Origin: an uncultured Methanomassiliicoccales archaeon
GTDB lineage: Archaea > Thermoplasmatota > Thermoplasmata > Methanomassiliicoccales > UBA472
Assembly: GCA_963710685.1 (NCBI GenBank)
Contig: CAVQBH010000009.1
Location: forward strand, 555,818 to 619,817
Length of the DNA: 64,000 bases
Reading direction: 5' to 3'
The first letter of the stretch is position 1. The number at the start of each line of letters is the position of its first letter. Below the pieces are notes generated by a model. That model did no database searches and was not told the DNA's origin. It saw only the letters and a list, made by a program, of their open reading frames with translations. Positions 2,079 to 59,705 of this stretch are shown one piece after another. A program made the translations under genes and the position numbers.

Positions 2079-2203
2079 GAGGTCTCAGATCCATTTGACG
2101 AAGGATTGGATGGAATAATAGTGAGACTTCCAGACTAAATCATTTTGCCTCCCCGGTACCGGCCCAGAAATAGATTAATATCGAACAACGACGAAATACC
2201 AGC

Positions 2204-2647
2204 ATGGAGGCTCGGAGGCCATTGATAAGGAGAGCCGGACGGGAAGACTATGAGGGCATAATCACCCTCTGGAACCGCGCCGGACTGCATCATCAACCTG
2301 AGGGGAGGGATTCCAGGGCAAGTCTGGAAAGGGAGATGGAAGATCCGGACGTGGACTTCCTGGTGGCGCTGGCCGGGGACAGGGTCATCGGTTCGGTCAT
2401 CGGCACCAACGATGGCAGGAAAGGTTGGGTGAACCGCCTGGCCACCGACCCCGACCGCCAGGGAGAAGGTGTCGCGGCCGAGCTGGTGGAAACGGTCGAG
2501 CTTCTTTTCAAAGCCCGTTCCCTGAAGATCTTCAGCTGCCTGATCAATGCCGAGAACATGCCGTCCCGGGCCCTGTTCGAAGGGAACGGATATGTCCTCC
2601 GTACGGAGGTCTTGTACTATTCCAAAAAGGTCGACCCCGACGTATGA
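2204..2647 (+). CDS. GNAT family N-acetyltransferase
   Basis: 147 aa. Acetyl-CoA motif A RKGWVNRLATDPDRQGEGVAAELV (Q/RxxGxG/A). Confidence 0.8.
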   Translation: MEARRPLIRRAGREDYEGIITLWNRAGLHHQPEGRDSRASLEREMEDPDVDFLVALAGDRVIGSVIGTNDGRKGWVNRLATDPDRQGEGVAAELVETVELLFKARSLKIFSCLINAENMPSRALFEGNGYVLRTEVLYYSKKVDPDV

Positions 2648-2716
2648 TCTTTTTATTATCATCTGCTGGAAAAGGACGGAACACTATATCTCAGGACAAG
2701 GCAAATCAGGCCTTGA

Positions 2717-5458
2717 ATGGCGGAACCCCCGGAATCGACCATAAGAGTTTTGGTCGTCGATGATGAGACGACCCTTCTAGAGATAGCCAGGGATTTCCTG
2801 GAGCAGGTCCCTGGCATCGTGGTCGATGTGGAATTGTCCCCGTTCAATGCGCTTCAGATGCTATCGTCACATGATTATGACGTGGTGGTCTCCGACTATC
2901 AGATGCCAGGGATGGACGGCATCCAGTTTCTCAAGCGTCTCCGCTCCCGGGGCGATGACATACCTTTCATTCTGTTCACTGGAAAAGGCCGGGAAGAGGT
3001 GGCCATGGAAGCCCTCAATAACGGCGCGGACTATTATATCCAGAAGGGAGTGCAGGTCAGACCGATGTTCGCGGAACTGGCCAACATGGTGCGGCGGAGC
3101 GTCGAGCACAAAAGGATCCTCCGGTCGATCAAGGAGAACGAGATCAAGTACCGCAAACTGTTCAACAGCAATCGGGACGCCATACTGGTCTGGAAGCTGA
3201 ACGGGGAAGGCCGTTTGGTCGATGTCAACGACAAGGCCTGCTCGCTGCTTCACTACTCCCGCGAGGAACTTCTGGGAATGGACAAGAACGATCTCCTGGC
3301 CCCTGGGCGCACCAGCGAGAATTTCGTGGTAAAGGACCTGCGCACCAGCGAGGGCGAGGAGTCCGTCGAGCTGACCTTGTTCTCCAAGGCCATGGAGGAG
3401 ATACCCTGCCTGGTCACGACGAATGCCATAGAGATAAACAGGGTCGGACATGCCATCTCCATCGTACGGGACCAGAGGGACAAGCACCGTTCCGATAAGG
3501 AGGCCGAGGAAAGGGAGGCGAGGTTCCATGCGATCTTTGAGAACTCGGCCACCGGCATCGCCCTGGAAGACTCGGACCGCAGGATCTTGGAATGCAATCC
3601 GGCGTTGGCACGGACATTCCATAAAAAGTGCGCCGAGCTCCGGGGGACCATAGCCTATGACCTCATGGACCCGGAATGTGCGAAGGACCGGTCCGAGTTC
3701 GCCCGCCTGATGAGCGGCGAAATAGATCAGTTCACGAAGGAGAACCTGTATCGTGATGCGGATGGCCTGCCCATATGGGGCAACGTGCACTTCTCACGAA
3801 TTCAGGATGACGGAAGGAGCCTGGCACTGGCCATGGTGGAGGACGTGACCAAGAGAAGGCAGACGGAGAACCTCCAGACGTCGCTCTACCAGATTTCGCA
3901 GGCGACCGTGTCCTCGCCCAATCTGGATGTCCTTTACGGCAGGCTGCACGAGATACTTTCCGGGCTGATGCCGGCCAAGAACTTCTTCATCGGTCTGGTC
4001 ACCGATGACGGCGAATCGATGGCCTTCCCCTACTTCGTGGACGAAAAGGACCCCAACCCCGGCAGCGTGCGCAGGTGCCGGACCACATCGAACTATGTTA
4101 TCAGGACCGGTAAGCCCCTGTTCATGGACAAGCCTCTGTGGGCCAAGCTGATCGCCGAAGGAGAGATCGTCCCATCCGGCACCCTGCCCATCCATTGGAT
4201 GGGAGCCCCGCTGAAAGTGGGGGGGAGGACCATAGGGGTGATGGCGGTCCAGAGCTATACCGGAACGGTCAGATACAGCGAGATGGACCAGGAGATTCTC
4301 ATGTTCGTCTCCGACCACGTGGCTCTGGCCATAGACCTTAAGAGGTCGGAAGAGGCGCTGAAGGAAAGCCAACGCACACTGTCCACCCTGATGGGGAACC
4401 TGCCGGGCATGGCCTACCGTTCCCGCAACGACGAGCGTTGGACCATGGATTTCATTTCCGAAGGTTGCCGCAGCCTCACCGGATACTCTCCCCAGGAGAT
4501 CATCGGTAACAGTCTCATCGGCTACAATGACCTGATCCATCCGGAAGACCGGAAGTTGGTCACGGAGGAGATAAGAAAGGCCATAGAGGGGAAGAACCAG
4601 TTCCATGTGGAATACCGTTTGATAGCCAGGGACGGGACCGTCCGATGGCTCTGGGAACAGGGATGTCCGATATACGGCACGACAGGGGCAATGGTCGGAC
4701 TGGAAGGCTTCATCACCGATGTTTCAATGCGAAAAAGGGCCCAGGAGAACGTTAGACTGGCGAATCGGAAGCTTACCCTGCTCGGAGACCTCACCAGGCA
4801 TGACGTGCTCAATCGGGTCACCATGCTCTCCGGTTATCTGGAACTGATCGACAAGAACGCCAAGGACGAGAAGGTCCTCCGCTATGCGGAGAAGGCCATG
4901 ATGGCCGCCCGATCCATCGGGGAGCAGATGGAATTCATTCGGGAATATCAGGGGGTGGGTATCGGAGAACCGGAATGGTTCGACATGGACCAGCTTGCAA
5001 GCCGGGCCATCTCGAAGACCGATTTTGGAAGCATCGGCATCAGTTATGAGCTGGACGGGCTGTCCATATATGCCGATCCGATGATAGAGAAGGTCTTCGG
5101 CAACCTGATGGAGAACTCCGTCAAGCATGGCATGACCGCGTCCAACATCACGATCTCCTATCTCAAAGGGAAAGACTCCCTGGAGATATATTTCAAGGAT
5201 GATGGGACGGGGATTCCCCCAGATTCGAAGCTGCAGCTCTTCGACAGGAGCTACAAGCATCGGTTGGGCCACGGCATGAACTTCATACAGGAGGTGCTGC
5301 GCATCACCGGGCTGGAGATAGACGAGATCGGACTGCCCGGAAAAGGGGCCCTGTTCCGCATCAAGGTGCCGACTGGATGCTATCGGATGAAGGAGGGCCT
5401 GGGTAAAAGCTTTATGAACGACGCTTTCGTTACTGGAGAAGAGAGGGCCGTGAAATAA
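2717..5458 (+). CDS. hybrid sensor: receiver domain + PAS/GAF/PAS + histidine kinase
   Basis: N-terminal receiver (VLVVDDE...VVVSDYQMPGMDG). PAS-like repeats and a GAF-like segment. Phospho-acceptor region LTRHDVLNRV. HATPase_c motifs (ENSVKHG, DDGTGIP, GHGMNF). Confidence 0.85.
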   Translation: MAEPPESTIRVLVVDDETTLLEIARDFLEQVPGIVVDVELSPFNALQMLSSHDYDVVVSDYQMPGMDGIQFLKRLRSRGDDIPFILFTGKGREEVAMEALNNGADYYIQKGVQVRPMFAELANMVRRSVEHKRILRSIKENEIKYRKLFNSNRDAILVWKLNGEGRLVDVNDKACSLLHYSREELLGMDKNDLLAPGRTSENFVVKDLRTSEGEESVELTLFSKAMEEIPCLVTTNAIEINRVGHAISIVRDQRDKHRSDKEAEEREARFHAIFENSATGIALEDSDRRILECNPALARTFHKKCAELRGTIAYDLMDPECAKDRSEFARLMSGEIDQFTKENLYRDADGLPIWGNVHFSRIQDDGRSLALAMVEDVTKRRQTENLQTSLYQISQATVSSPNLDVLYGRLHEILSGLMPAKNFFIGLVTDDGESMAFPYFVDEKDPNPGSVRRCRTTSNYVIRTGKPLFMDKPLWAKLIAEGEIVPSGTLPIHWMGAPLKVGGRTIGVMAVQSYTGTVRYSEMDQEILMFVSDHVALAIDLKRSEEALKESQRTLSTLMGNLPGMAYRSRNDERWTMDFISEGCRSLTGYSPQEIIGNSLIGYNDLIHPEDRKLVTEEIRKAIEGKNQFHVEYRLIARDGTVRWLWEQGCPIYGTTGAMVGLEGFITDVSMRKRAQENVRLANRKLTLLGDLTRHDVLNRVTMLSGYLELIDKNAKDEKVLRYAEKAMMAARSIGEQMEFIREYQGVGIGEPEWFDMDQLASRAISKTDFGSIGISYELDGLSIYADPMIEKVFGNLMENSVKHGMTASNITISYLKGKDSLEIYFKDDGTGIPPDSKLQLFDRSYKHRLGHGMNFIQEVLRITGLEIDEIGLPGKGALFRIKVPTGCYRMKEGLGKSFMNDAFVTGEERAVK

Positions 5459-5847
5459 TGAACGTCATCCTGGCCATCGATGCGCAATCGTTTTCCAGCA
5501 AGACGGCAAAGTATGCCATCGAGTACGCCAAGCGGATGGGAGGGGACCTTGTCATCCTGGCGGTCCTGAGCCGCAAAGAACTGGAGGAAAATCCCCGCCT
5601 GGTCAAGTTCACCCAGATCGTCATGTCCCGCATAAAGACGGAGGCGGGGGACGAAGGAGTGGACGCCAAGACCCTGCTGGAGAGCGGCCCCCCCGTGGAG
5701 TCGATCCTGCTCGAAGCTGACCGGATCAGGGCGACGGCGATAATCCTGAGCCCATCCCTCAAGACCGGCATGGACAAGTTCATGATCGGCAGCGTCTCCG
5801 AGGGCTTGATCAAAGGGGCCAAATGCCCGATCATAATCGTAAAATAA
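5458..5847 (+). CDS. universal stress protein (UspA family)
   Basis: 129 aa. USP C-terminal signature GSVSEGLIKGAKCPIIIV. Its ATG overlaps the kinase stop (TAATG), suggesting co-translation. Confidence 0.8.
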   Translation: MNVILAIDAQSFSSKTAKYAIEYAKRMGGDLVILAVLSRKELEENPRLVKFTQIVMSRIKTEAGDEGVDAKTLLESGPPVESILLEADRIRATAIILSPSLKTGMDKFMIGSVSEGLIKGAKCPIIIVK

Positions 5848-5994
5848 CGTTAGCCACCTCGAACGGCGTGTTCCCATACCGTTTTGAAGCCAGTGAATCC
5901 ACTGAAAGGTTGCTTCTTCGGCCCCTCGCCCAAAGTGTATTTTGAAAAGTTATATCGGAGGGCACGTCGATGGCTTCTAGAGGAAGGTGGGATC

Positions 5995-6384
5995 ATGAAC
6001 ATCCTATTGGCAACGGACGGGAAAGAACACTCGGCCAAGGCCGTCAGATACGCTTTCGATCATGCGAAGGATCATAAGGCTACGCTTTTCGTGGTGTTCG
6101 TGGTCAGCCCCAAGGCGGACGAGGACAAGGAACGCGTCATCAGGATCGGACTGGATGAGTTGGACCGACTGAAGGACATGGCCTCCAAGGAAGGCATCGA
6201 CATCAAAACGATGCTCGAGGCCGGCTCCCCCTACGACACCATCCTGAAGGCCTCGGACCGGGTGAACGCCAACGAGATCGTGGTCGGAACATCTGGAAAG
6301 ACCGTCATAGACCGGGTGCTGATCGGCAGCGTCTCCGAATATGTGGTGCGTAACGCCAAATGCACCGTCATAGTCGTCCGGTGA
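5995..6384 (+). CDS. universal stress protein (UspA family)
   Basis: MNILLATDGKEHS...GSVSEYVVRNAKCTVIVV. ATG at 5995, preceded by purine-rich aggaaggtgg, is preferred over the ORF-track start at 5884. Confidence 0.8.
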   Translation: MNILLATDGKEHSAKAVRYAFDHAKDHKATLFVVFVVSPKADEDKERVIRIGLDELDRLKDMASKEGIDIKTMLEAGSPYDTILKASDRVNANEIVVGTSGKTVIDRVLIGSVSEYVVRNAKCTVIVVR

Positions 6385-6389
6385 GCCCA

Positions 6390-6896
6390 CTAGGACCGCG
6401 GCGCTTCCGCGACCGTGTCCTTCTTCATTTTTGATTCCATGAGGTCCAGCGCCACCATTATGCCCTGGATGATGGCCTGGGGCCGAGGGGGGCATCCGGG
6501 GATGAAGACGTCGACCGGAACCGCTGAGCTGACGCCGTGCGAACAGGCATAGGTGTCGGCGAACAGCCCGCCGCTGATGGCGCACACCCCCATCGCCACG
6601 ACGATCTTCGGGTTGGGCGTGGCGTTGTATGTCCGGATAAGCGCATGCTCCATGTTCCGGGTCACAGGACCGGTGACCAACAGCATGTCGGCAAAGCGCG
6701 GCGAGGCCACGATGTGCAGGCCGAACCGCTCAATGTCGTAGATGGCGTTGGTGAGGGCGTTGACCTCCACCTCGCAGGCGTTGCATGAGCCGGCATCCAC
6801 CTCCCTGATCGATAGCGAACGGCCAAGCACCTTCTTGATCCGCTCGTCCAGCTTCCGACCCAGGACCTCGAAGTTCTGCTCACTGTTTTCTGTCAA
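6390..6896 (-). CDS. NuoB/HycG-type small subunit of a group-4-hydrogenase-like/complex-I-like module
   Basis: The Cys ligands of the proximal 4Fe-4S cluster are all present: GSCNACEVE, GVCAISGG, PGCPPRP. Confidence 0.85.
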   Translation of the reverse strand: MTENSEQNFEVLGRKLDERIKKVLGRSLSIREVDAGSCNACEVEVNALTNAIYDIERFGLHIVASPRFADMLLVTGPVTRNMEHALIRTYNATPNPKIVVAMGVCAISGGLFADTYACSHGVSSAVPVDVFIPGCPPRPQAIIQGIMVALDLMESKMKKDTVAEAPRS

Positions 6897-7215
6897 TCCG
6901 GTACACCACCTTCAGGTCCTGAGCTTCCTTGGCGGCCAGCTCGAACTTCTTTGACATCCTGATCGCCTGCTCCGGACAATGCCGGGCGCATTCGCCGCAG
7001 AAGATGCACAGGCCAATGTCGATGGAGATCGTGTTGTAGCTATCGTCGATCGCACCGGTAGGGCAGACCTGCACACAGGCCTTGTCCATCCTGCAAGCGT
7101 GGACATCGATCTCCGGCATGCCCATATGGCCGTCGTAGGGCTCGTAGGGCCGGTCAGGATAGTCTCCCGTCACCACCCCCTTCTTCATCACTCCCTTGGT
7201 GTACCATCTGAACAT
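6880..7215 (-). CDS. 2x[4Fe-4S] ferredoxin-type subunit (HycF/NuoI-like)
   Basis: Two ferredoxin Cys clusters (CRMDKACVQVCP and CIFCGECARHCP). Overlaps the downstream small-subunit gene by 17 nt. Confidence 0.8.
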   Translation of the reverse strand: MFRWYTKGVMKKGVVTGDYPDRPYEPYDGHMGMPEIDVHACRMDKACVQVCPTGAIDDSYNTISIDIGLCIFCGECARHCPEQAIRMSKKFELAAKEAQDLKVVYRIDRKQ

Positions 7216-7224
7216 GTGCTCACC

Positions 7225-8811
7225 TCACAGATCGTTCCCAGCATAGGAGAGGCTGAGGCTCTTGTTAACCAACGGGAAGTCCGGGACGATGTTACCCAGG
7301 ACTGCGAACTCTATCGCAAGCCAGTTGCTGAAGGAGGGATCCCGGACCTTGTGCCGGAAGGGGACGCCCTGTCCGGCCATGATCCAATGCATCGCTTCGC
7401 CGCGCGGTGTCTCGACCAGGCTCATCCCCACCTTCTTCTCCGGCACTTCCCCCATCTTCACCGCGATATCCGAACCCTTCAACGAGTCCAGCGCCTGTTC
7501 GATGATGCTCACGGACTCGTTTATCTCGTCGATCCTGACCTTGGTCCTTGCCAGAATGTCCCCTTCCCGATAGACCGGTACGGTGAAGCTCATGCGCTTG
7601 TACGCCGCATAGGGATGGTCGCGCCTGACGTCCCGGTCGACCCCGCTTCCCCTGGCGGCCGGACCCACCAGGTCCATGTTCTTGGCGATGTCGTACGATA
7701 TCGTCCCGGTGACCTCGATCCGGTCCATCAGCGAAGGCATGTCCATGATCATCGCCACCCATTCGTCCAGGTCCAGTTTGGTCCCGACAAGGGTCGATTT
7801 GATCTTGTTGGCGTGTTCCCTGCTGATGTCCTTCCTGACCCCGCCCAGCGTGTTCACCGAGCGAAGGAATCGACTGCCAGTCAGCCAATCGTTCAGGTCC
7901 ATGATGCGTTCCTTGAGGATGTAGGCCTGTTGCGCCCCGACATTGAACGCCGTGTCCAGTGCGATGCCCCCCAGGTCGCCGATGTGATTGTATATGCGCT
8001 CCAGCTCCAGCAGCGCGGTCCTGATGTTCTCCGCCCTTTCGGGCACCTGGACATCGGCGATCGATTCCATGGTCTGACAATAAGCCGTGGAATGGGCGAA
8101 TCCGTTGTCGCCGGATATCCGCTCCGCCAGGAACACCCCGCGATGATACGGGGTGGACTCGGACAGCTTCTCCACGCCCCGATGAACGTAGCCCATCCGG
8201 ATCTCGAGGTTGATTATCGGTTCGCCGGCAACGCTGAAACGGAAATGTCCTGGTTCGATGACCCCCGCGTGGACTGGACCGACCGGGATCACGAACACAC
8301 CCTCTCCCTCGACCGGCCGGTAGGGATAGTCGGTCCTGATCCGTTCTATCTTCGACTCTATGTCAAAGTCCTTGCGCAGCGGATAGTAGCCGAGGGGCCA
8401 GTCGTCCCATAGCACCAGCGGCCGCGGGTCCGGGTGTCCCAAGGCGGTGATTCCGAACATGTCCATTATCTCGCGTTCATACCAATAGGCGGCGAATATC
8501 TCCGAGGTCAGCGTGCGGTAGGCCGGCAATGATTCGTCGATCTTTGTGGCCAGCGTCAGGAACAGGTCCTTCCGGGGCAGCGAGAATATGGTGTACAGGC
8601 AGAAGTTCAAGGTATGCTCCCGCTCGTCCGTGGCATGCTGGGAGATGAGGGTCACGTGATAGCGCCGGTTGAGGTGGGCCACCATGTCGGGGAGCGAGTC
8701 CTTGGTCACGTCTATGCGAAGGTTCCGCCCCTCGAACGAGGTCGAGACGACCCCGATGGCCACCTGCGGCGGGAGGTCCTCCAATATTTCCGTCAGATAC
8801 TCCTCGCTCAT
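7225..8811 (-). CDS. fused NuoC/NuoD-like (HycE/HyfG-like) large subunit lacking all four [NiFe] cysteine ligands
   Basis: HycE-type core GPVHAGVIEPGHFRF. The N-terminal ligand motif reads ERISGDNGFAHS instead of RxCGxCxxxH (S233, N236). The C-terminal motif reads SLSLSYAGNDL-stop instead of SLDPCxxCxxR (S522, G525). Confidence 0.85.
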   Translation of the reverse strand: MSEEYLTEILEDLPPQVAIGVVSTSFEGRNLRIDVTKDSLPDMVAHLNRRYHVTLISQHATDEREHTLNFCLYTIFSLPRKDLFLTLATKIDESLPAYRTLTSEIFAAYWYEREIMDMFGITALGHPDPRPLVLWDDWPLGYYPLRKDFDIESKIERIRTDYPYRPVEGEGVFVIPVGPVHAGVIEPGHFRFSVAGEPIINLEIRMGYVHRGVEKLSESTPYHRGVFLAERISGDNGFAHSTAYCQTMESIADVQVPERAENIRTALLELERIYNHIGDLGGIALDTAFNVGAQQAYILKERIMDLNDWLTGSRFLRSVNTLGGVRKDISREHANKIKSTLVGTKLDLDEWVAMIMDMPSLMDRIEVTGTISYDIAKNMDLVGPAARGSGVDRDVRRDHPYAAYKRMSFTVPVYREGDILARTKVRIDEINESVSIIEQALDSLKGSDIAVKMGEVPEKKVGMSLVETPRGEAMHWIMAGQGVPFRHKVRDPSFSNWLAIEFAVLGNIVPDFPLVNKSLSLSYAGNDL

Positions 8812-10280
8812 GGGAACGCCCCCGCAGATACCCCGAACAGGTTCGCGATGTTGACCAGCAGGTCATGCAGCTGGGACGGAATGAATATGCCCATCACCAG
8901 TATCATGATCAGCAGCGCCCCCATGGGCAGGAACCTGGAACGCTCCAGTTCTCCCTTCGGTACCCCTTCCGTCGGCTCACCGAACATCATCTTGCTGACG
9001 TGGTACATGAAAGCTGCGAATATCACCGAGAGCAACAGGATATAGGTGCCGGCCGCGAGATAGTTGGTCGCAGACAGACTCCCGGTCAGTATGGTCACCT
9101 CGGACAGGAATATGCTGAACGGCGGCGATCCGGTGATGGCCAGGGCACCGGCTATGAACAGGACCGCGGTGACCGGCATGAGCGTGGAAACCCCCTTGAT
9201 AGCGGAGATGTCCCGGGTTTTGAACTTCTGCAGGAGATTGCCCGCTCCCAGGAACATCAGGCACTTGGTGAGGGCATGGTTCAACATGTGCAGTAGCGCA
9301 CCGAAGATGCCCAGGAACCCGCCGATTCCGAAACCGAAGGCGATGATCCCCATGTGCTCGATCGAGGAGTAGGCGAGCAGCCGCTTGAAATCCCGGGCCA
9401 TTATGATGAAGGCCGCCGCCACCGCCATCGACACCAATCCGAATATCAGGAGCAGCGTGGACGAGAACCCGGGAACCGTGACCGAGGTGATGAGGTGGAA
9501 ACGGAGTATGCCGTACATCGCACAGTTCAGGAGCACGCCGGACAGCAGAGCGCTCACCGGTGTCGGGGCCTGGGAATGGGCGTCCGGCAACCAGGTGTGC
9601 ATGGGGGCGAGGCCCACCTTGGTACCGTAGCCCACCATGATCAGGATGAAAGATATCTTCAACAGCGTGGGGTCCAGGTGGGAGGCGTTGCTCATCAGGG
9701 TGGACCAGTTCAGGGCATCGGAGGACTCCCCCAGCCAGGAGACCGATGATGCGTAAGCAAGGATCGTCCCGAACAATGCCAGGGTGATGCCCACCGAACA
9801 GATGATCAGATACTTCCAGGCCGCTTCGACGGCCATGTCGTTCTCCGTGAATCCGACCAGGAACGCGGACGCCAGCGTCGTGGCCTCGATGGCTATCCAC
9901 ATTATCCCCAGGTTGTTGCTGATGACCACCATCAGCATGGTGAACATGAAGATGTTGAACAGCACGTAGTAGTATTTGGCCCGGTCCACCGAGAGCTCCT
10001 TCTCCCTGACCTCGTGGCCGATGTACGGTATCGAGTAGATCATCGCCATCAGCCCGATGAAGGTGATTATGAACAGCATGTACGCGCTCAGCGAATCCAG
10101 GTACCATACGCTGTACTCGATGTTGCCGTTGGTCATCACGTCATAGATCACGTAGCAGGCGACGGCGAAGAGTGCGGCGATGCCCGCGGCGGAGATGAGC
10201 TCCATCTGACGGCGGGACCTGGTGAAGAAGACCAGAATCCCGGTGATGATGGGGATGGAGATCATCAGTTCGAGCATCAT
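8808..10280 (-). CDS. NuoM/NuoN/HyfF/MrpD-type antiporter-like membrane subunit
   Basis: 490-aa polytopic protein with typical family blocks (WLPDAHSQAPTPVSALLSG, LAYSSIEHMG). ATGA overlap with the large-subunit gene. Confidence 0.8.
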   Translation of the reverse strand: MMLELMISIPIITGILVFFTRSRRQMELISAAGIAALFAVACYVIYDVMTNGNIEYSVWYLDSLSAYMLFIITFIGLMAMIYSIPYIGHEVREKELSVDRAKYYYVLFNIFMFTMLMVVISNNLGIMWIAIEATTLASAFLVGFTENDMAVEAAWKYLIICSVGITLALFGTILAYASSVSWLGESSDALNWSTLMSNASHLDPTLLKISFILIMVGYGTKVGLAPMHTWLPDAHSQAPTPVSALLSGVLLNCAMYGILRFHLITSVTVPGFSSTLLLIFGLVSMAVAAAFIIMARDFKRLLAYSSIEHMGIIAFGFGIGGFLGIFGALLHMLNHALTKCLMFLGAGNLLQKFKTRDISAIKGVSTLMPVTAVLFIAGALAITGSPPFSIFLSEVTILTGSLSATNYLAAGTYILLLSVIFAAFMYHVSKMMFGEPTEGVPKGELERSRFLPMGALLIMILVMGIFIPSQLHDLLVNIANLFGVSAGAFP

Positions 10281-10939
10281 CAGTCCCTCAGCCTCCTCAT
10301 GAAAGTGGTGTCGACCGTCTCGAAGGTATGGTTGATCTTGAACGCGAATATTCCCATGATGATAGCGGCCACCAGTACGTCAAAGAATATGCCTATCTCA
10401 ACGATCATCGGCATTCCGTAGGTCAGGGATATCGCGGCCAGGAACAGCCCGTTCTCCATCATCAGCAGGCCGACGATCTCGGTCATGGCCTTGCGGCGGG
10501 CGATGATGACGAAGAATCCGATCAGCACCACCGCGAGCGATATCGCCAGGCAGTTCTTGGTGATCGCGCTGCCCTGGGCAATGATGGGCGAGGAGATGTA
10601 GTAGGCGATGAAGGTGAGCGCCCCGCAGATCAGGAGCGACCCGGGAATGCTGACCAGGGGTTCGACCTCCTTCTTGACCTTGATGCGGTCCACGGTGTAG
10701 TCCAGGAACCTCGGGATCACTATCACCTTCAGGACGATCGTCAATATGGCCACGATGTAGATGTGGTCCGCATTGGTGTAATAGGCGACCGCCGCGGCCA
10801 GCAGACCCAACGCCAGCGACCCGAGCGTGTACGCCCTCACTATCTGGTGCATGCGGACGCCCGCCACCAGCACGAATGCGAACAGCAGGATCAGGGCGGC
10901 CAGCCCGTTGATCACGTCGGTCAGAAGTATGTCGCTCAT
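10280..10939 (-). CDS. HyfE-like small membrane subunit
   Basis: 219-aa multi-TM protein with an ...IVGLLMMENGLFLAA... block. Size and operon position match HyfE. 1-nt overlap with the next gene. Confidence 0.6.
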   Translation of the reverse strand: MSDILLTDVINGLAALILLFAFVLVAGVRMHQIVRAYTLGSLALGLLAAAVAYYTNADHIYIVAILTIVLKVIVIPRFLDYTVDRIKVKKEVEPLVSIPGSLLICGALTFIAYYISSPIIAQGSAITKNCLAISLAVVLIGFFVIIARRKAMTEIVGLLMMENGLFLAAISLTYGMPMIVEIGIFFDVLVAAIIMGIFAFKINHTFETVDTTFMRRLRD

Positions 10940-10949
10940 CTCGTTCGCC

Positions 10950-11897
10950 TCATAGAATGTAGAATGACATCACCGCCAGCAGGGCAAGCGTGAACGACAC
11001 GGTCAACAGGTTGGGCAGGCGGAACAGGCGCAGCTTCGATATCGATGATTCGATGATGGCGACGATCAGGGCCAGGAACAACACCTTCACCAGGATGGAG
11101 ACCAGACCGGCGCCGATGCTGAACGCCGACAGGTCGTTGGCGATCCCCCAGGGAAAGAACACGTTGGACAGAATGGTGAAGTACAGGACCAGCCGGGTCA
11201 TGCTGGAAAGTTCCATGAGCCCCAGCTTCTTGCCTGAATACTCGAGGATCATGCCCTCGTGGATCATGGTGAGCTCGAGGTGAGTGGTGGGGTTATCGAC
11301 AGGTACCCGGGCGTTCTCCGCTATGGTCGAAATGAAAAATGCGGCGGATGCCAGGAACAAGGCCGGACGGACCAGGTCGATCCCGGAGACGGAGAGCGCA
11401 CCGGCGATCGTGCCCAGGCTGGTGGTGCCGGTGATGAGCCCCATGGCGAAGATCGAGAGCAGCATCGTGGGCTCGACTATCGACGAAACCATCATCTCCC
11501 TGCTGGAGCCCATCCCGCCGAACGCACTGCCCGCGTCCAGGGCGGCTAGGGCGGTGAAGAACCGCACCGTGCCCAGCAGGTAGACCACCACGATGAGGTC
11601 GCCGACGAAGCCCAGGGTCCGGGTGACGAAGACCGGGACCAGGAGGGCGGCGATCAGCACCGCGGCCATTGAGATGTAGGGCGTGACCGAGAATATCCAC
11701 GAGGTGTCCCTCGAAACGACCGAGTCCTTGCGGAAGTATTTTGCTATGTCTCGGTAAGGCTGAAGAATGCTGGCACCACGCCGCTGTTGAGCGTACGCCT
11801 TGATCTTCCTGATGATGCCGGTGACCAGCGGTGCTATGGCGAGCAGGAGAAGGGCCTGCAGGACGCTCAGCACGATATCGATGTATATCTGGTCCAT
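10950..11897 (-). CDS. NuoH/HycD-type membrane subunit
   Basis: 315-aa polytopic protein with a HEGMILEYSGKKLGLMEL block typical of HycD/NuoH. Confidence 0.8.
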   Translation of the reverse strand: MDQIYIDIVLSVLQALLLLAIAPLVTGIIRKIKAYAQQRRGASILQPYRDIAKYFRKDSVVSRDTSWIFSVTPYISMAAVLIAALLVPVFVTRTLGFVGDLIVVVYLLGTVRFFTALAALDAGSAFGGMGSSREMMVSSIVEPTMLLSIFAMGLITGTTSLGTIAGALSVSGIDLVRPALFLASAAFFISTIAENARVPVDNPTTHLELTMIHEGMILEYSGKKLGLMELSSMTRLVLYFTILSNVFFPWGIANDLSAFSIGAGLVSILVKVLFLALIVAIIESSISKLRLFRLPNLLTVSFTLALLAVMSFYIL

Positions 11898-11902
11898 TCA
11901 CA

Positions 11903-13922
11903 TCACCTGAATATTATCAGCAGGAACACCAGCGTGGCAAAGATGTAGGCCAGATAGGCTTGGATGCTGCCTGCTTGGATCTTGGTGGCCCTGCTGGCGA
12001 TGGCGACCATGACGGCCACTACCGGCTGGTACAGGTATTTCTCGAAGACTGGGACGACCACGAAGACGTAGGATACCCGCTTTTTCACGTAAGGGGAGGA
12101 TGTCGATTCGGTCTTGACCTCTGGCTTTGGCCGATAGATGTAGCTGAAGACCCGGACCAGCGGGTTGGAGTAAGCGGTGCCGGTGTATTGGTTGCGAGCG
12201 GTGAGCGGGGTGCCGCAGTCCCAGGTGTCCTCGATCACGGTCTTCCTCTTTCCGCCGTAGCGTTTGGAGATCACGATGATCAGCGGGACGGTCACGGCGA
12301 TCAGGATGGCCAGTATGAACGGTGACATCGCCGAGAACTGCTGGTTCGTGGGGCTGATGACAAAACCGTTGACGATGGAGGATGCCGCGGACACCCCTAC
12401 CAGCGGGGTGGTCACCTGGTCCACGTAAGGGATGATGGCGAAGGACATGACCCCGGTCGCGATGCACAGGAAGGCCGCTATCCCGGAACCGACCAGCATG
12501 GTCCGGGGCACTTCCTTGGCGTGCTCAGCGTGCTCGCTCCGAGGCTTGGCCAGGAACACGATGCCGAAGAGCCTGACGAAGCAGACGGCGGCCAGTGCCC
12601 CGGTCAGCGCCAGGATCGCGATGGACACCGGCAGCAGGACCTTGACCGTCACGTCCGGTATCTGGAAGGACTGCAGCAGCGATTGGAATATGAGCCACTC
12701 GCTGACGAACCCGTTGAACGGGGGGATGGCGGCGATGGACAGAGCGCCGATGAAGAATATGATCCCGGTCCATTTCATCCTCTTGGCCAGCCCGCCGAGC
12801 TTCTCCATGTCCTTGGTGTGCGTCGCGAACAGTATGGACCCGGCGCCCATGAAAAGTGCGCCCTTTGAAGAGCGCGTGGTTCATGACGTGCAGCAGGGTG
12901 GCGATGAGCGCCAGTCCGGCTAGCAGGTTCAGATTGTATGACTGGAAGACCATGGCTGCGCCGAGACCGATGAGGATTATGCCCACGTTCTCGACCGTGG
13001 AATAGGCGAGCACCCTCTTGATGTCCGTCTCCATCAGCGCGTACATCACCCCGAGCAGTGCGGAGATCGAGGCCACCAGCAGGACCAGGAGACCCCACCA
13101 GGTGTCGGTGACGCCGAGGAAATCAAAGAAGGTTCGGATCATCATGAAGATCGCGGTCTTCACCATGACGCCGGACATGAGCGCCGAGACGTTGGATGGG
13201 GCGGCAGGATGGGCATAGGGCAGCCATACGTGCAGGGGGATGATCCCGGCCTTGGTGCCGAAACCGATGAAGAGAAGGACAAAGAGCGTGCTCTTGAGGG
13301 CGCTGGGTATCACTGCCCCGACCCCCGAGTAGGATGAGAAATCGAACGAATGGGCGTAGATGCCCATCATGATCAGCGCCACCATGATCAGGGCGGTGCC
13401 GAGATGGGTCATGACCACGTAGAACAGACCGGAGGAGGCAACCCCTTCCTTGCGGTTCTCGTACACGACCAAAAGGTACGAGGTGAGCGACATGGCCTCC
13501 CACACCACCAGGAAGAAGATGGCGTTGCTCGCCGAGACGACGAAGGTCATGGAGAGCAGGAACAGGTTGAACAACAGCCCGAGCAGGCCGACGCTGTATT
13601 TGCCGTCGTATTCCTTTGAGTACCCGATCGAATAGATCGAGACCGCGAATGAGACGACCGAAATGACCAGAAGGAAGAACGCCCCAAGCCGGTCCAGCGA
13701 GAAACCGAAGTGACCGAACGGGGTGTCAAATGGCAGCTGAATGCTCATCGGCGAACCGGCCAGCACCAGAACGGACACGACCGTTCCGAAGAGCGCGGTG
13801 AGCGCTGCGGCGCTGAAGGAGACCGCCGCACATTTCCGCTCCCATTTTCTGAGGGCCACGGCGGATACCGCGCCGACAAGACCGGTTATCGTAAGAAGGA
13901 TGAAGAACAGATCAGCGTCCAA
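11903..13922 (-). CDS. NuoL/HyfB/HycC-type antiporter-like subunit, frame-interrupted as assembled
   Basis: ORF pieces 12525..13922 and 11903..12850 join as ...LLHVMNHALFKG|ALFMGAGSILFATHT... if one base of the CCC run at 12861-12863 is removed. Confidence 0.8.
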
Positions 13923-14233
13923 TGGATGCCCCCGGTGCTCTCGTCACGCTCTTGCTCGGCGGATCCAACGTCCCATTGCAGTTCGTGCTCGTTGTGAAGA
14001 CCTTCCGTGCTTTTTAGGGCAAAATCAATACTGACCTTTAACCTTTCGTTAATGATTTGACCTGGTCATGCATCCATCATCGATGAGGAAGGATCACTGA
14101 CGGATCGATCTTCGCTTCACGAGCGTAGAGACCCAGAAATCCCGATGGCAAATGACCCTTTCTCCAATAGAAAGGGGATCATAGGCCGTCTTCATCTGGC
14201 CGTTCCAGGGAGTTGCCCTTCGATCCTACTCGG

Positions 14234-15615
14234 TCAGATTTCCGACAGTGACAAATCAGCCATCGGCGGCTCCCACGACCATATCGTGCCTCCCGGTCCG
14301 TTGCCCCGGTCATCCACCGGATTTACAGCATCTATCGAACGACCTTCCCCTAGGCCGACCGGCCCTGGGCCTTCCTGGTCGATCCGCGCCACAGCGAAAA
14401 GTAGGCGAACAATGAGGCGAGCAGGACCAGATGAACCGATGAGCCATGCGGCTTCGATGGAATAGAGCCCGGAGACCAAGCCTAGGGTGACGTGAGGCGA
14501 TGACCCCACCCAGTTGGGCGACCAGCGAATCGAAGGACATCAGCGTCGAGCGCTTCTCCGATGGAATCCCCGCGTTATAGGCCGCCGCGTGTGGCGAGCC
14601 CATAAGCCCGATGAGCAGGTAGACCACGAAATAAAAGGCTATGAACCCCCAGGACCGTGCTCTGGATCGCCAGGAGGGCGATCGACGCGGATATGCAGAC
14701 CGCAACGACGACGAGGGCAAGGTACAGATTGCCTTTGAAAAGGTCGACCATCTTTCCTGAAAGGGCGCTGCCCGCGGAGGCCATGAAGAAGTAACCAGCG
14801 GCGACCAACCCGAATATCCAGGACTGGGAATCTGAACCGATGATGCCCTCGAGCTGCGGTTGCCATAACAGCTCCAGACCGAAGAGGGAGAAACCGAGCG
14901 CGAGGGTGGCGGCGAGGAGAAGGCGGGTGTTCCGATCTCGGATCCCGAACTCAACCGCATCGTGCAGTACCTTCGGGACGTCTTTGAACCCCTGGGCCAT
15001 ACCCTTCCGTCCTTCCTTGCCGATTTTCTCATGTATCATGACGGAGGTGAGCGCGAACTGCAGAGCGACCATTGTCATCATGGCGATGAGGTTCGCCGAA
15101 TATCTCCCCATGCCGGTAAGCTGGGCGGCGGCCTCACCGAACAGCATGGGAATGAGGCCGCCGACGAGCGCCCCCAATGCCAGACCTATGGGGATGTATG
15201 TGTTGGCCTTGCCGAGGGCTTCCTGCAGATTCCCGCCCGGGTGCTCCGGATTGAACCCGTCCACGAACCAGGCGTCTATGGAACCGGAGGAAAGGGCACG
15301 CGCCACCCCGTAAACGATGAATCCGACGGCGAAGAACAGCACGTCCCGACCGACGAGGATGAATGAGAGGGCCAGCATAGATACGCATAGCGATGCCAGA
15401 TAGACCCTCTTCCTCCCGACCGCATCGGCCAGTCCGCCGGTGGGCAGCTCAAGCACTATGACGGTGGCCGAAAATAGGGCCAGCACCGTACCCACCTCGA
15501 CCAGGTCCAGCCCTTTGTCCAGCAAGAGCAGCACCATCACCGGGGTGAACATTCCGGGGATGAACCAATGTACCGCCTGGTTGATGATGTAGGTCAAGAG
15601 GAGCCTGTCTGTCAA
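14234..15615 (-). CDS. MFS transporter, frame-interrupted twice as assembled
   Basis: Multi-TM MFS-like sequence runs through three frames. The junctions are ...QSTVLG|FIAFYFVVYLL... at C-run 14646-14650 and ...AQLGG|SSPHVTLGLVSG... at C-run 14504-14507. Confidence 0.7.
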
Positions 15616-16010
15616 CTGGAATACCTCTGTCTCTTTTTAGATGACCGAAATCCCTGGTGCCGTAATAAGGCTAACTGCCGTTCTGCACATGATTCGCATC
15701 CCATAGGGCCTGGTCGGAAATGTCACTGGCGTTTCGGCCGAATGGTGCCCCTGACGAGGAGGCCGTCGTTCGTTCTCTAACCATGATCGTAATGCCAGAT
15801 TGTGGTCATGAGGATGCCGTTGAAATCTTCCGTCTGTCAGTACGAAATCGTGTGCTCCGAACCAGTCGTCCACGTGATGGACCACGTGGTACTGCTCGAT
15901 TAACAAGAGCCTCCTGGCCATGTTTTGGCCCGGAGGAGACAGGAGCAACCCCAAAACGGTTCGTGTACCGACCCTGAGTTTATCCGAACCCACGCCTGTC
16001 CCGATTTTCC

Positions 16011-18542
16011 TCAGAACCCCCTTTTACCGTAGTACCGATAGAAGAAGAACTTGACCACCTCTACCAGGACCAGGTAGGCGGCGATGATGCCGACCAGCGC
16101 TAGATAGAACTCCAGAGGAGGTGTCACGAACTGGAACAGCGGGCCTATGGGTGTGTAGGGGATAAGGAAGCCGATCACGACGATGGTAAGGCTGCTGATG
16201 GCGAGCAGGCGACTGGGTTTGGACCGATAGAAAGGTGTGACGCGGGTCCTGATGACGAAGATGATCAGCACCTGGGTCGCCAAACCTTCGATGAACCAGC
16301 TCGATTGGAACTGCTGGGGCGTGGCATTGAAGATGAACAGCAGCACTGCAAATGTGATCAGGTCGAAAGCAGAGCTCACCAGACCGAAGACGATCGTATA
16401 GTTCCGAATGAACTTGACACTAAGTCGCCGGGGCTTCTCGATGTATGACTGGTCCACATTGTCGGTCGGTATGGTAAGTTCCGAAATATCGTACATCAAG
16501 TTTCCTAGAAGTATTTGGATCGGCAGCATCGGCAGGAAAGTAAGGAACACTGAGGCGGCGGCCACCGAGAACATATTGCCAAAGTTGCTGGACGTTCCCA
16601 TCATGATGTACTTCATCGTGTTTCCATGGGTCTGGCGTCCCTCCAGTACGCCGTCCTCCAACACCTTCAGGTCTTTCTTTAGCAGAATGATGTCGGCCGA
16701 TTCCTTCGCGACGTCGACCGCGGTGTCGACCGATATCCCCACGTCTGCCGCCTTTAGAGGAGGGGCGTCGTTGATGCCGTCACCGAGATAGCCGACCACA
16801 TGCTTGTTCGCCCGCAGGGCCTTGATGATCCTCTCTTTCTCGACCGGGTTCATGCGGCAAAATAGATTGGCCTTCTCCACGATGATGGCCAGTGCCAGAT
16901 CCGAGACGTTGGCGATCTCGCTGCCGAGGACTATGCCTTTCACCTCGACCCCGATGGATTCGCAGACGTGCTTGGTGACCAGCTCATTATCGCCAGTCAA
17001 CACTTTTAGGTCAATTCCCGAATCGCGCATCAACTTGATCGCCGCGGCGGCGCTCTCCTTGGGAGGATCCAGGAATGCCAGGAACCCTATGAAGGTCATT
17101 CCGTTCTCATCCGCGGGCTGATAGGTGGTACGGCCACTGTCCAGCGCCTTCTCCGCGATACCCAGAACCCTGAAGCCTTTCATGCCCATCTGCTGGAACT
17201 TTTCCTGGGCCGAGGCCATGGCAGTGACCATATCTACGGTTCCGGACTTCAATCGGCACTTCGAGCACGCCTTGAATATCTCTTCCGGAGCCCCCTTGGT
17301 GATCAGTATTCGTTCGGCACCTTTCCCCACCACCACTGAAAGCTTCTTTCGGACGAAGTCGAATGGAATCTCGTCCACCTTGGTAAAGGGAGAGGTGTCG
17401 ATCTTACGATACACCAATAGAGCGGCATCCAGAGGGCTCTTGATACCGGTCTCGAAGACGCTGTTGAGGTAAGCGTCAAGGAGCACAGAGTCGTCATCGT
17501 TGCCCTCCGGGTCGACATGCATTATGAGCTCGATCCGGTTCTCGGTGAGGGTCCCGGTCTTGTCGGTGCATAGAATATCCATCGAACCCAGGTCCTGGAT
17601 CGAGGAGAGCTTCTTGACGATCACGTCCTTTCCGGCCATCTTGATCGCGCCCCTTGACAGGACCACGGTTATGATCATTGGCAGAAGTTCCGGAGTGAGA
17701 CCAACGGCCAGTGCCAGAGCGAACAGCAGAGATTGAAGCAGGTCCCGGTTGAACGCCGCGTTAACGACAAAGACGAAAAGCACGAGGAAGATCGTCAGTT
17801 CCGTGATCAGGTACCCGAATTGCCTGATCCCCTTCGTGTACTCGGTGTCTGTCTCCTTGCCCATCAGCTTCTTCGTTATTTGACCGTAGAGGGTCGATGC
17901 CCCGGTCCTGACGATCTCGACGGTTGCGCTTCCAGACACCACGTTGGAACCCATAGAGACGGCGTCTTCATCGGGGTCGCCTTGCTTCTGTTTTTGCGAA
18001 GGCGTCTTTTCAACCGGGAACGCTTCACCGGTCAGGGAGCTCTGGTCGACGAAGAAGTCCTTGGCCACAAGAACCCGCCCATCCGCAGGAACGATATCCC
18101 CTGCAGAAAGCAGGACCGTGTCTCCTGGAACGATCAATGATATCTTGATGTCCTGGGGTTCGCCGTCCCTTATCACCGAAGCCGTGTTAGTGACCTTTTC
18201 CCTGAGCCTCTGGGCCGCCTGGTTGGACTTGTTCTCCTGGTAAAAGTCCAACGTGACGGAAACGAAGACGAGGAAGAAGATTATGCCGGCCTGAACCCCT
18301 TGCCCGGAAAGGCCGGAAACAAAACCGGCGATAAGAAGGATGATAACCAATGGATTCTTGAAATACGAAAGATACTGGAATATTAGGTTCTGTTTCTTCA
18401 CCGCGATCTCATTCGGACCGTGCTCTGCCAACAGCCGACCGGCCTCTTGAGAGGTCAAGCCTGAAAGTCTAGCTTCCGTTCCTTCCTGTCCCTTGGCCGC
18501 TTGGGGTCCCGCAGGAGGAAGTGTGTCCGATCCATCCATCAT
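16011..18542 (-). CDS. mgtA: P-type ATPase, Mg2+-transporting (MgtA-like)
   Basis: 843 aa. Motifs DKTGTLT, TGDN, GDGINDAP. M4 segment TPELLPMIITV resembles the MgtA subfamily. Confidence 0.8.
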   Translation of the reverse strand: MMDGSDTLPPAGPQAAKGQEGTEARLSGLTSQEAGRLLAEHGPNEIAVKKQNLIFQYLSYFKNPLVIILLIAGFVSGLSGQGVQAGIIFFLVFVSVTLDFYQENKSNQAAQRLREKVTNTASVIRDGEPQDIKISLIVPGDTVLLSAGDIVPADGRVLVAKDFFVDQSSLTGEAFPVEKTPSQKQKQGDPDEDAVSMGSNVVSGSATVEIVRTGASTLYGQITKKLMGKETDTEYTKGIRQFGYLITELTIFLVLFVFVVNAAFNRDLLQSLLFALALAVGLTPELLPMIITVVLSRGAIKMAGKDVIVKKLSSIQDLGSMDILCTDKTGTLTENRIELIMHVDPEGNDDDSVLLDAYLNSVFETGIKSPLDAALLVYRKIDTSPFTKVDEIPFDFVRKKLSVVVGKGAERILITKGAPEEIFKACSKCRLKSGTVDMVTAMASAQEKFQQMGMKGFRVLGIAEKALDSGRTTYQPADENGMTFIGFLAFLDPPKESAAAAIKLMRDSGIDLKVLTGDNELVTKHVCESIGVEVKGIVLGSEIANVSDLALAIIVEKANLFCRMNPVEKERIIKALRANKHVVGYLGDGINDAPPLKAADVGISVDTAVDVAKESADIILLKKDLKVLEDGVLEGRQTHGNTMKYIMMGTSSNFGNMFSVAAASVFLTFLPMLPIQILLGNLMYDISELTIPTDNVDQSYIEKPRRLSVKFIRNYTIVFGLVSSAFDLITFAVLLFIFNATPQQFQSSWFIEGLATQVLIIFVIRTRVTPFYRSKPSRLLAISSLTIVVIGFLIPYTPIGPLFQFVTPPLEFYLALVGIIAAYLVLVEVVKFFFYRYYGKRGF

Positions 18543-18649: not shown

Positions 18650-19168
18650 ATGGCACCATCCAAACCGATAAGCGCGCTTTCTATACTGGCGGCCGCGAGG
18701 CAGATCGAGATATTCGGAATCCAGTTCTACTCAAAAGTTGCGACCTGCGTGGAGGATGAGAACGGCAAGGCGCTGATGAGGTCGCTCGGCGCGGATGAGC
18801 GCATGCACAAGGAGACGATCGAAGAGGTGATGGAGCACCTCTCCCCAGGCCTGGACCTGGACAGCATTGAACCGGAAAAACAGTTCCTGGACATCCTCCC
18901 GGAGAAGGTGTTTCCGTTCCCTCCGGAGGGCGCCTGCCTGACCGTCGCGGACGAGATCCGGGCGGTCAACATCGGACTGGACGTGGAGATCGCCTCGGTG
19001 AAGATGTACCAGGAAGCCTCGGCGATGGTGGACGACCTGAAGATCAAGAACATCCTCATCACCCTAACTCGTATCGAGGAGAAGCACAAGATCCTCCTCG
19101 AGTCCTCGCTCATGCTGTTGAAAACAGACGGCAGCTGGTACGCGTACACGCCGATCTTGGAGGGGTAG
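18650..19168 (+). CDS. ferritin-like/rubrerythrin-type diiron domain protein
   Basis: 172 aa with two EXXH-bearing helices (DERMHKE, IEEKHKI). No rubredoxin domain. Confidence 0.6.
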   Translation: MAPSKPISALSILAAARQIEIFGIQFYSKVATCVEDENGKALMRSLGADERMHKETIEEVMEHLSPGLDLDSIEPEKQFLDILPEKVFPFPPEGACLTVADEIRAVNIGLDVEIASVKMYQEASAMVDDLKIKNILITLTRIEEKHKILLESSLMLLKTDGSWYAYTPILEG

Positions 19169-40585: not shown

Positions 40586-40594
40586 GGTGCTTCA

Positions 40595-41512: not shown

Positions 41513-41513
41513 G

Positions 41514-55718: not shown

Positions 55719-58247
<2,529 letters not shown>

Positions 58248-58423: not shown

Positions 58424-59705
<1,282 letters not shown>

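Follow-up and report, generated by a model that had tools for sequence, protein, structure and literature searches.

Complexes of the Ehr (energy-converting hydrogenase-related) kind are spread over a very wide range of bacteria and archaea and were reportedly a subject of work by Marreiros et al. in 2013. The first to be described, in Geobacter (GSU0739-45), includes a NuoL-like EhrA, a HyfE-like EhrC, EhrL and EhrS (PMC7894505), and the name dates from 2005 (Coppi 2005, as cited in PMC6147122). Members have also been reported in Desulfotomaculum, where some keep cysteines (PMC3569383), in Melainabacteria and Margulisbacteria (PMC6349859), in ammonia-oxidizing archaea (PMC10432482), and in comammox Nitrospira, where the complex was described as close to hydrogenase group 4f (PMC10284858). 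Papers from 2023 still call the function unknown (PMC10432482, PMC10284858), and in the literature searched we found no later functional assignment or characterization. In Methanomassiliicoccales, Ehr has already been recorded once: Speth and Orphan (2018) listed a complex without assigned function in one metagenome-assembled genome (MAG) (PMC6147122), the operon being possibly of the type described here. The subject of the present analysis is a seven-gene operon in 64,000 nucleotides (nt) of DNA from an uncultured Methanomassiliicoccales archaeon (contig CAVQBH010000009.1, positions 555,818 to 619,817), the whole of which we call the window and whose own numbering is used below. We are highly confident that the operon encodes an Ehr complex of the cysteine-free, methanogen/anaerobe subtype.

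The operon lies on the minus strand at 6390-13922, as judged from the list of open reading frames (ORFs) and Pfam/NCBIfam profile matches, and is tightly packed, its genes overlapping by 1, 4 or 17 nt or being spaced by 5-10 nt. An initial annotation, made from the letters of the window, had given the gene order as HyfB, HycD, HyfE, HyfF, NuoC-NuoD, ferredoxin and NuoB/HycG with overlapping stops and starts, and had proposed an Ehr complex that is not a hydrogenase. Order and overlaps hold, and the assignment to Ehr agrees with a matching subunit set and the absence of all four [NiFe] cysteines. EhrA, a HyfB/NuoL-like antiporter-type membrane subunit (11903-13922), is split as sequenced into ORFs at 12525-13922 and 11903-12850, both of which match NCBIfam hydrogenase-4 subunit B (profile positions 8-358 and 357-667). 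EhrB, a NuoH/HycD-like membrane subunit of 315 amino acids (aa) (10950-11897; Pfam NADHdh, E=3.5e-44), occupies the identical position in all related loci compared. It is followed by EhrC, a HyfE-like membrane subunit (10280-10939, 219 aa; NCBIfam NF008556, E=1.7e-32, below cut-off), and EhrD, a HyfF/NuoM-like antiporter-type subunit (8808-10280, 490 aa; NCBIfam hydrogenase-4 subunit F, 543 bits). The remaining genes encode EhrL, a fused NuoC-NuoD/HycE-like large subunit (7225-8811, 528 aa; Pfam/NCBIfam and phmmer), a HycF/NuoI-like two-cluster ferredoxin subunit (6880-7215, 111 aa; Pfam Fer4 families and the NCBIfam FHL iron-sulfur subunit), and EhrS, a NuoB/HycG-like small subunit with a TTG start (6390-6896, 168 aa; Pfam Oxidored_q6, E=3.6e-32). 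Pfam and NCBIfam detected no NADH or F420 input module among the seven products and no NuoA, J, K or N, the membrane genes being NuoL-, NuoH-, HyfE- and NuoM-like. The operon also has no Mrp-type small membrane subunits (Pfam) and no HycI-type protease gene, and formate dehydrogenase/HycB-type partner genes are missing from it and from related archaeal operons alike. The subunits present are of the kinds described for the Geobacter complex, namely NuoL-, NuoH-, HyfE- and NuoM-like, large and small.

The distinguishing feature of the complex is in its large subunit. In a phmmer search of all PDB chains, EhrL 'ERISGDNGFAHS' aligns with 'DRVCGICGFAHS' of Escherichia coli HycE, and 'SLSLSYAG' with 'SLDPCYSC', which puts S233, N236, S522 and G525 of EhrL at the four [NiFe] cysteine positions. 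The initial annotation had named these same replacements, and its codons (8113-8115, 8104-8106, 7246-7248 and 7237-7239) are arithmetically right. Neither the L1 (RxCGxCxxxH) nor the L2 (DPCxxCxxR) motif of group 4a [NiFe]-hydrogenases occurs in EhrL.

The replacements extend well beyond the window. Loci of relatives were used for comparison, the window large subunit having no exact match in public assemblies. The 120 best database homologues of EhrL (52-96% identity) come from Methanomassiliicoccales, including Methanomassiliicoccus luminyensis, from Methanocella arvoryzae, from Methanoperedens and from Lokiarchaeia. All 120 have S-[NSTA]-S-G or a near variant at the ligand positions and none has a cysteine there, and the motifs around the replaced ligands, ERISGDNxxAHS and KSFNLSYSGNDL-stop, are shared. 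We therefore rejected sequencing error as the cause of the missing cysteines, every homologue sharing the replacements. When the set is widened to 310 sequences, 258 of them have no cysteine at these positions and carry the signature SGD[NSTE]...LSYSGNDL-stop. A breadth scan of one genome per GTDB species gave matches at 39-51% identity in bacteria (Nitrospirota, Acidobacteriota, Verrucomicrobiota, Firmicutes, Rokubacteria, Omnitrophota, the candidate phyla radiation [CPR] and Melainabacteria) and archaea (Thaumarchaeota and Methanosarcinales), most of them with S[NSTE]SG at the ligand positions and 12 with all four cysteines. Homologues from the described Ehr lineages (Nitrospira, ammonia-oxidizing archaea, Melainabacteria and CPR) fall in this identity range, with 39-48% identity in the scan, and the window protein shares their SGDx/LSYSGNDL signature. 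The loss of cysteines is thus ancient and common to the family, with a motif that is itself conserved in their place, and did not occur in this lineage. With the ligands replaced in EhrL and in all close homologues, the earlier claim is supported: the window complex is not a hydrogenase.

The nearest cysteine-bearing relatives show what else changed. In a representative library of 1.84 billion proteins, the best match, P0121, has four cysteines and 48% identity; it stops three residues past the last ligand position, just as EhrL ends ...SYAGNDL, 3 residues past position 525. HycE/HyfG-type proteins with extensions of 28-37 residues are more distant (35-37% identity to EhrL). A rough neighbor-joining tree, built with the ligand columns removed, sets Ehr and a short-C-terminus clade apart from the HycE type and nests the window EhrL in a large cysteine-free clade; being rough, it does not settle whether cysteines were lost once or several times. 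The initial annotation had noted that EhrL ends at the protease cut and has no C-terminal extension, which is true, HycE-type relatives having 28-37 residues more. Its use as a sign of lost function or maturation was rejected, since four-cysteine relatives in the clade stop at the same place; the absent extension is a clade trait and not a consequence of losing the metal site. These four-cysteine short relatives (for example P0121, Thermincola and Desulfotomaculum; up to 48% identity) have the gene order, the end three residues past the last ligand and the KSF.L.Y context of the window, but they keep CGxC and CxxC together with a hydrophobic residue at 235, Gly 286, Ser 491 and a terminal Arg, none of which the window has. 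They are probably the HydDB group 4f 'Ehf' hydrogenases, a label that rests on the placement of Ehr beside 4f (PMC10284858). In architecture the window complex is Hyf-like and nearest to [NiFe] hydrogenases with a short C terminus.

Comparing residues between 258 cysteine-free members on the one hand and, on the other, 29 short relatives with four cysteines and 9 of the HycE type suggests how the site was altered. Position 235 is Asp in 91% of the cysteine-free members (Val, Ala or Ile in four-cysteine relatives), position 286 is Asp in 86% versus 7% (Gly or Leu), position 491, beside R490, is Asp in 81% versus 0% (Ser or Ala), and the C-terminal residue is Leu in 80%, compared with Arg in 90-100% of four-cysteine relatives; as the first 120 sequences are close archaeal relatives, the cysteine-free percentages are weighted towards archaea. 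The window EhrL itself carries D235, D286 and D491. Around them, E186, D394, R396, D418, E467 and D511 are at about 100% in all groups compared, and the beta1-beta2 loop (GPVHAGVIEPGHFRF) is essentially invariant, with E186 and R490 conserved; we take R490 to be, probably, the active-site arginine of hydrogenases. The three aspartates are gained together with the loss of the four cysteines and the terminal Arg. Because these gains and losses occurred while E186, D394, R396 and the other residues stayed invariant, the metal site seems to have been rebuilt into an acidic, polar pocket with the surrounding proton and charge network kept. An AlphaFold2 model of EhrL (pLDDT 87.5, pTM 0.90) has HycE 7z0s_E as its best fold match (TM 0.90). 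The retained second-sphere residues, E186, R490 and an EAPRG-like 'ETPRGE' motif, are what could be cited for H2 still being evolved or consumed at a noncanonical site, but all four metal ligands are gone in every clade member and we know of no [NiFe] hydrogenase that works without them, so that such activity is scarcely credible.

Solved structures offer several points of comparison, although no PDB entry for an Ehr is found among the sequence and fold matches. By phmmer, HycE (7z0s_E) is the top hit (E=1.8e-90, 307 bits), followed by Thermus Nqo4 (181 bits), MbhL (170) and MbsL (6u8y_L, 129). E. coli HycE/HyfG (group 4a, PDB 7z0s) is thus the best solved relative, with the fused NuoC-NuoD and the HyfB/E/F-type subunits alike; the window complex differs in lacking NiFe ligands, the 28-37-residue extension, FdhF/HycB partner genes and a HycI-type protease gene. 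With the NuoD and FpoD models, EhrL stays below cut-off (NF004739, 248.7 versus 360; TIGR01962, 209.7 versus 459; NF040602, 201.2 versus 600), and with the quinone ligands also absent, membership of the NuoD/FpoD group was rejected. EhrL therefore does not fall inside the Nuo/Fpo NuoD clade, a placement that would have spoken against the initial reading; HycE is the nearest solved relative. Functionally, the working analogy is with Mbx/MBS of Pyrococcus furiosus (6u8y) and the Fpo-like complex of Methanomassiliicoccales, ferredoxin-oxidizing ion translocators with a nonproton sink, but similarity to these is much weaker (129 bits for 6u8y_L, 201 bits for FpoD) and the membrane arm differs.

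A complex I-like architecture overall might suggest a ferredoxin:lipophilic-carrier oxidoreductase with a quinone or methanophenazine-like compound as its electron acceptor, in the manner of Fpo or complex I without its input module. We consider this quite improbable. EhrL lacks the Tyr and His with which NuoD ligates quinone, the NuoD and FpoD models do not reach their cut-offs, and the pocket, being acidic and polar, is not a hydrophobic one. Among the hosts of the family, moreover, are CPR bacteria and Lokiarchaeia, which are not known to make quinones. On the other side, Methanomassiliicoccales have genes for which synthesis of a liposoluble carrier has been proposed (Borrel 2014, PMC4153887).

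The rest of the machinery that would move electrons and ions is kept. In the ferredoxin subunit, motif 1 reads C41-x2-D44-x2-C47-x3-C51-P, with Asp44 (codon 7084-7086) in place of the second Cys, and motif 2 is a canonical CxxCxxCxxxCP. Profile matches confirm the two-cluster ferredoxin of the initial annotation, which is corrected here as to Asp44. The CxxDxxCxxxCP variant was seen only in the window and in the related loci L001 and L008 of this genus when motifs were compared with relatives, M. luminyensis and the remaining relatives having the canonical four cysteines; P. furiosus ferredoxin has the same Asp for the second Cys of its cluster motif. EhrS retains C38, C41, C105 and C135, all four proximal-cluster cysteines, as had been claimed, so that the window subtype keeps all 12 cluster ligands (11 Cys and 1 Asp). 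A three-cluster iron-sulfur wire is thus retained, made up of the HycF-like subunit, with one cluster bearing an Asp ligand, and the NuoB-like proximal cluster. In the membrane arm, the EhrA translation shows the channel residue contexts WEAMS, GTKAG, NHALFK and FVSEW, and alignment of EhrD with MbhH (6cfw_H) shows the contexts of the TM5 Glu, TM7 Lys, TM8 Lys and TM12 Glu to be kept, so that the Glu/Lys channel residues of both antiporter-like subunits are retained. Methanocella, Methanoperedens and Lokiarchaeia keep this seven-gene order too, and their operons do not include a partner oxidoreductase.

We lean towards ferredoxin-driven ion translocation with a nonproton electron sink as the function of the complex. 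Reduced ferredoxin would give up its electrons to the HycF-like subunit, which would pass them on to the proximal cluster of EhrS; changes of charge and protonation in the acidic pocket at the EhrL/EhrS/EhrB interface would drive coupled movement of H+ or Na+ through EhrB, C, D and A, as in Mbh, FHL and complex I; and the electrons would end on an acceptor other than H+ or a classical quinone. From the observed parts list we infer the electron path, the coupling and the acceptor, and for the window subtype this is the most economical reading. Its support comes from the subunit identities, the family-wide ligand replacement, the covarying aspartates, the retained wire and channel residues, the conserved seven-gene order, and transcription of the orthologous operon in M. 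luminyensis.

Several observations weigh against this mechanism. No electron acceptor can be named, and the NiFe cysteines and the quinone ligands of complex I are both missing from the pocket, Nqo4 Tyr87 aligning with G234 and His38 with I185 (phmmer to 2fug_4, the loop alignment being approximate). Loop 179-197, the most conserved loop, is predicted at low confidence by AlphaFold2, as is the C terminus; presumably both become ordered only within the assembled complex. The wire is not general to the family either. Among cysteine-free operons, the HycF-like module, separate or fused to the small subunit, is found only in methanogen, Lokiarchaeia and Firmicutes loci, and most Nitrospirota, Acidobacteriota, Verrucomicrobiota and thaumarchaeal (ammonia-oxidizing) operons contain no ferredoxin-type cluster motif; the separate 2x[4Fe-4S] subunit thus distinguishes the window subtype from most bacterial and thaumarchaeal Ehr operons. 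The cysteines of the proximal cluster survive in 53 of 63 small subunits of the family and are lost in CPR, Methanosarcina, Thermoleophilia and a few others, including Bdellovibrionales, and Ehr complexes without them may carry no redox cofactor at all. Because the HycF-like module, the proximal cysteines or both are absent, at least part of the family cannot be an electron-throughput enzyme. In the literature searched, moreover, we found no biochemical or genetic data on function for any cysteine-free Ehr.

Individual loci in which the proximal-cluster cysteines are lost are L043, L066, L071, L077, L079, L080 and L083, with sequences such as TCDD, DPDN and SEGD in their place. Some four-cysteine relatives, mostly Firmicutes, also carry the HycF-like module. 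In M. arvoryzae (L005), the ferredoxin and small subunit are fused in one 247-aa protein.

The uneven distribution of clusters favors the main rival explanation, a redox-gated or redox-independent cation or proton translocator with a carboxylate-rich ion site, in which the clusters sense, gate or are structural and a universal stress protein (Usp) regulates under stress. Such a translocator would account for those family members that lack the HycF-like module and those that lack proximal-cluster ligands, and for the gain of three Asp and loss of the terminal Arg exactly where the cysteines vanish. It also fits the flanks: clustering of flank ORFs from 91 loci showed no partner gene conserved across phyla, nothing outside the core recurring beyond about 11 loci (ORFs were called crudely, with noise where loci are GC-rich), and no conserved partner oxidoreductase. 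Usp, by comparison, is the most widely shared neighbor of methanogen-type Ehr operons and the sole one common to several archaeal orders, adjoining the small-subunit gene in Methanomassiliicoccales, Methanocella, Methanoperedens and Methanosarcinales loci, with apparent translational coupling in one Methanoperedens locus (L006). Nevertheless, the window subtype keeps all of its cluster ligands, and it is difficult to account for retention of the HycF-like module specifically in ferredoxin-using anaerobes unless electrons flow. Mrp antiporters, furthermore, function without any NuoB/NuoD module. On balance we regard a translocator without electron throughput as unlikely for the window, though the main rival, and retain ferredoxin-driven translocation as the preferred reading.

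The flanking Usp genes, by which the window Ehr also differs from the Ehr complexes reported earlier, lie on the plus strand at 5884-6384 (Pfam Usp, E=4.4e-29), convergent with the operon end, and at 5458-5847 (E=1.3e-17). Beyond them is a hybrid sensor kinase with receiver, PAS, GAF and HATPase domains (2717-5458, plus strand; Pfam), a neighbor only in this genus (L001 only). The kinase and both Usp genes had been placed at the operon end before, correctly by Pfam. The Usp gene is codirectional with the Ehr operon in L006 (11910-12829) and in a Methanosarcinales MAG (L010, 2792-3708); in L006 it overlaps the stop codon of the small-subunit gene and resembles an eighth operon gene.

The split in EhrA raises the question of whether the operon is intact. 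A single surplus base in AAAGGG at 12861-12866 breaks the gene directly after the conserved NHALFKG motif, an insertion missed in the initial annotation, which had identified the HyfB-like subunit rightly (both halves match). In L001 (OW818644.1), whose large subunit is 91% identical to that of the window, EhrA is unbroken at 672 aa; DNA alignment of the two genes shows one 1-nt indel over 2 kb, and the window halves are 85-88% identical to the unbroken gene. Taken as sequenced, the break would mean that in this strain the operon is no more than a relic, inactive, or a cluster of pseudogenes. This is very improbable given the single indel and the similarity of the two halves, the unbroken and highly conserved state of all other subunits, and the strong conservation of the family. 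Essential genes in the same window are frameshifted as well: gyrA (51536-55708, minus strand) changes frame at least four or five times from 51.5 to 53.0 kb, its peptide stretches alternating among five ORFs, and thiC (58494-59667, plus strand) is divided between two frames (ORFs 58494-59384 and 59056-59667). A living cell is unlikely to carry several frameshifts in such genes, so the assembly is noisy, and a pseudogene reading of EhrA was rejected in favor of assembly error. The EhrA frameshift is most likely an assembly artifact, and the complex is for that reason probably intact in the organism.

Other features of this kind were seen in the window. The gene for a major facilitator superfamily (MFS) transporter (14310-15615, minus strand), between the operon and MgtA, loses its reading frame over about 220 nt before regaining it, one insertion falling in a GGGGG run relative to L001. 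The gyrA gene carries a LAGLIDADG intein, and gyrB (55719-58151, minus strand) is also intein bearing.

Upstream of the operon is a conserved block with a rubrerythrin gene (18650-19168, plus strand; Pfam), kept in L001, L002, L008, L088, L089 and L090, and an HdrD-like gene (19338-20570, plus strand) encoding two CCG domains and a 4Fe-4S dicluster domain (Pfam CCG x2, Fer4_8/Fer4_17). The HdrD-like gene is divergent from the operon and, as the initial annotation had it, 5.4 kb away; it is unbroken relative to L001 and present upstream in six Methanomassiliicoccales genomes. Its domain set, two CCG and 2x[4Fe-4S], is that of HdrD, and its best NCBIfam match is TfrB (232 bits versus a cut-off of 385), every equivalog model scoring below cut-off. 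Judged by accession, hdrD1-3 as given for M. luminyensis do not seem to include this gene (Borrel 2014, PMC4153887).

Might Ehr of Methanomassiliicoccaceae dock the HdrD-like neighbor and act as an energy-converting ferredoxin:heterodisulfide (or other disulfide) oxidoreductase? Such a pair would parallel, or partly account for, the activity assigned to Fpo-like/HdrD. The block of Lhr helicase, HdrD-like, rubrerythrin, Ehr and Usp genes is conserved in six Methanomassiliicoccales genomes, persisting where EhrL is only 56-61% identical to that of the window, and the HdrD-like gene is apparently outside hdrD1-3 of M. luminyensis and is expressed there (WYS_RS12230, fragments per kilobase per million [FPKM] 186-1022). 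Ferredoxin:heterodisulfide assays, according to secondary sources, were made on whole membranes, in which Fpo-like and Ehr activities would not be separable. In 'Ca. M. intestinalis', moreover, hdrD1 lies by echA1, judging from accession order. However, the gene order of M. luminyensis matches the whole window (thiC, gyrB, pilus-like genes, an AIR-synthase-related gene and then the Ehr block), and because the adjacency sits within more than 50 kb of synteny that includes Lhr helicase, gyrA/B and thiC, it is weak evidence and may be purely historical. We accordingly downgraded it as functional evidence: the HdrD-like gene of the initial annotation is there, but its proximity says little. The gene is also divergent, with rubrerythrin, MFS, MgtA and others in between, its protein is below every equivalog cut-off, and no HdrD lies near the Methanocella, Methanoperedens or Lokiarchaeia loci. 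Docking of Ehr to the HdrD-like protein is therefore improbable.

Further differences in gene content were noted around these loci. Relative to the L001 order, an MgtA-type Mg2+ P-type ATPase (16011-18542; 877 bits, above cut-off) and an IS110-family transposase (20842-21843) are inserted. In M. luminyensis and a further three Methanomassiliicoccales genomes (L002, 13195-18348; L089, 13426-18458; L090, 12927-17959; L009, with a second EhrL-like match near 12711), Ehr and Usp are followed directly downstream by a true six-gene Ech that has all four cysteines, where the window and L001 have the hybrid kinase. For 'Ca. M. intestinalis', the accession of hdrD1 (AGN25510) is followed at once by that of echA1 (AGN25511) (Borrel 2014 Table 6, PMC4153887), which suggests a second case of an HdrD gene by a group-4-type complex. 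The M. arvoryzae operon (L005) is flanked on one side by a divergent frhADGB-like F420 hydrogenase cluster (979-4357) and on the other, a few genes downstream and outside the operon, by a formate transporter and fdhAB (13486-17756). The window also contains two KaiC-like ATPase genes and a type IV pilus/archaellum-like T2SSE/T2SSF cluster (33944-35920, 37828-43245 and 50666-51487), in the same order as in M. luminyensis (WYS_RS12120-12135).

Transcription of the operon is documented in a cultured relative. In RNA sequencing of M. luminyensis CZDD1, the Ehr orthologues WYS_RS12245-12265 have FPKM of about 19-275 (bioRxiv 10.1101/2024.03.29.587405, supplementary file 3) and are about 2.2- to 2.6-fold higher in coculture with Clostridium than on H2; WYS_RS12230, the HdrD-like gene, has the values given above, and the Ehr genes are not discussed by the authors (bioRxiv 10.1101/2024.03.29.587405). 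The same operon, present and transcribed in this organism, provides a biochemically tractable host for a cysteine-free Ehr that bears a ferredoxin module.

The current model of energy conservation in Methanomassiliicoccales rests on Fpo-like and HdrD, and schemes also list MvhADG-HdrABC and sometimes Ech. Borrel 2014 lists only Fpo, Ech1 and Ech2 (PMC4153887), and neither 'ehr' nor 'hyf' occurs in a survey of 243 genomes. Although the window operon is an ordinary member of a known, functionally unsolved family, Ehr is thus a third complex I-like machine left out of the family papers checked, apart from the one MAG paper (PMC6147122). For the Ehr family, the covarying set of four cysteines and a terminal Arg lost and three Asp gained offers a concrete structural hypothesis for the remodeled site. 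Coupling to the HdrD-like protein is the most interesting possibility, although the synteny argument for it is weak: we see only a small chance that Ehr and the HdrD-like protein form a second, or even the main, ferredoxin:heterodisulfide oxidoreductase in Methanomassiliicoccaceae, M. luminyensis included. If they did, the membrane activity credited to Fpo-like/HdrD would be partly or wholly that of Ehr, and Ehr would have its first assigned electron acceptor.

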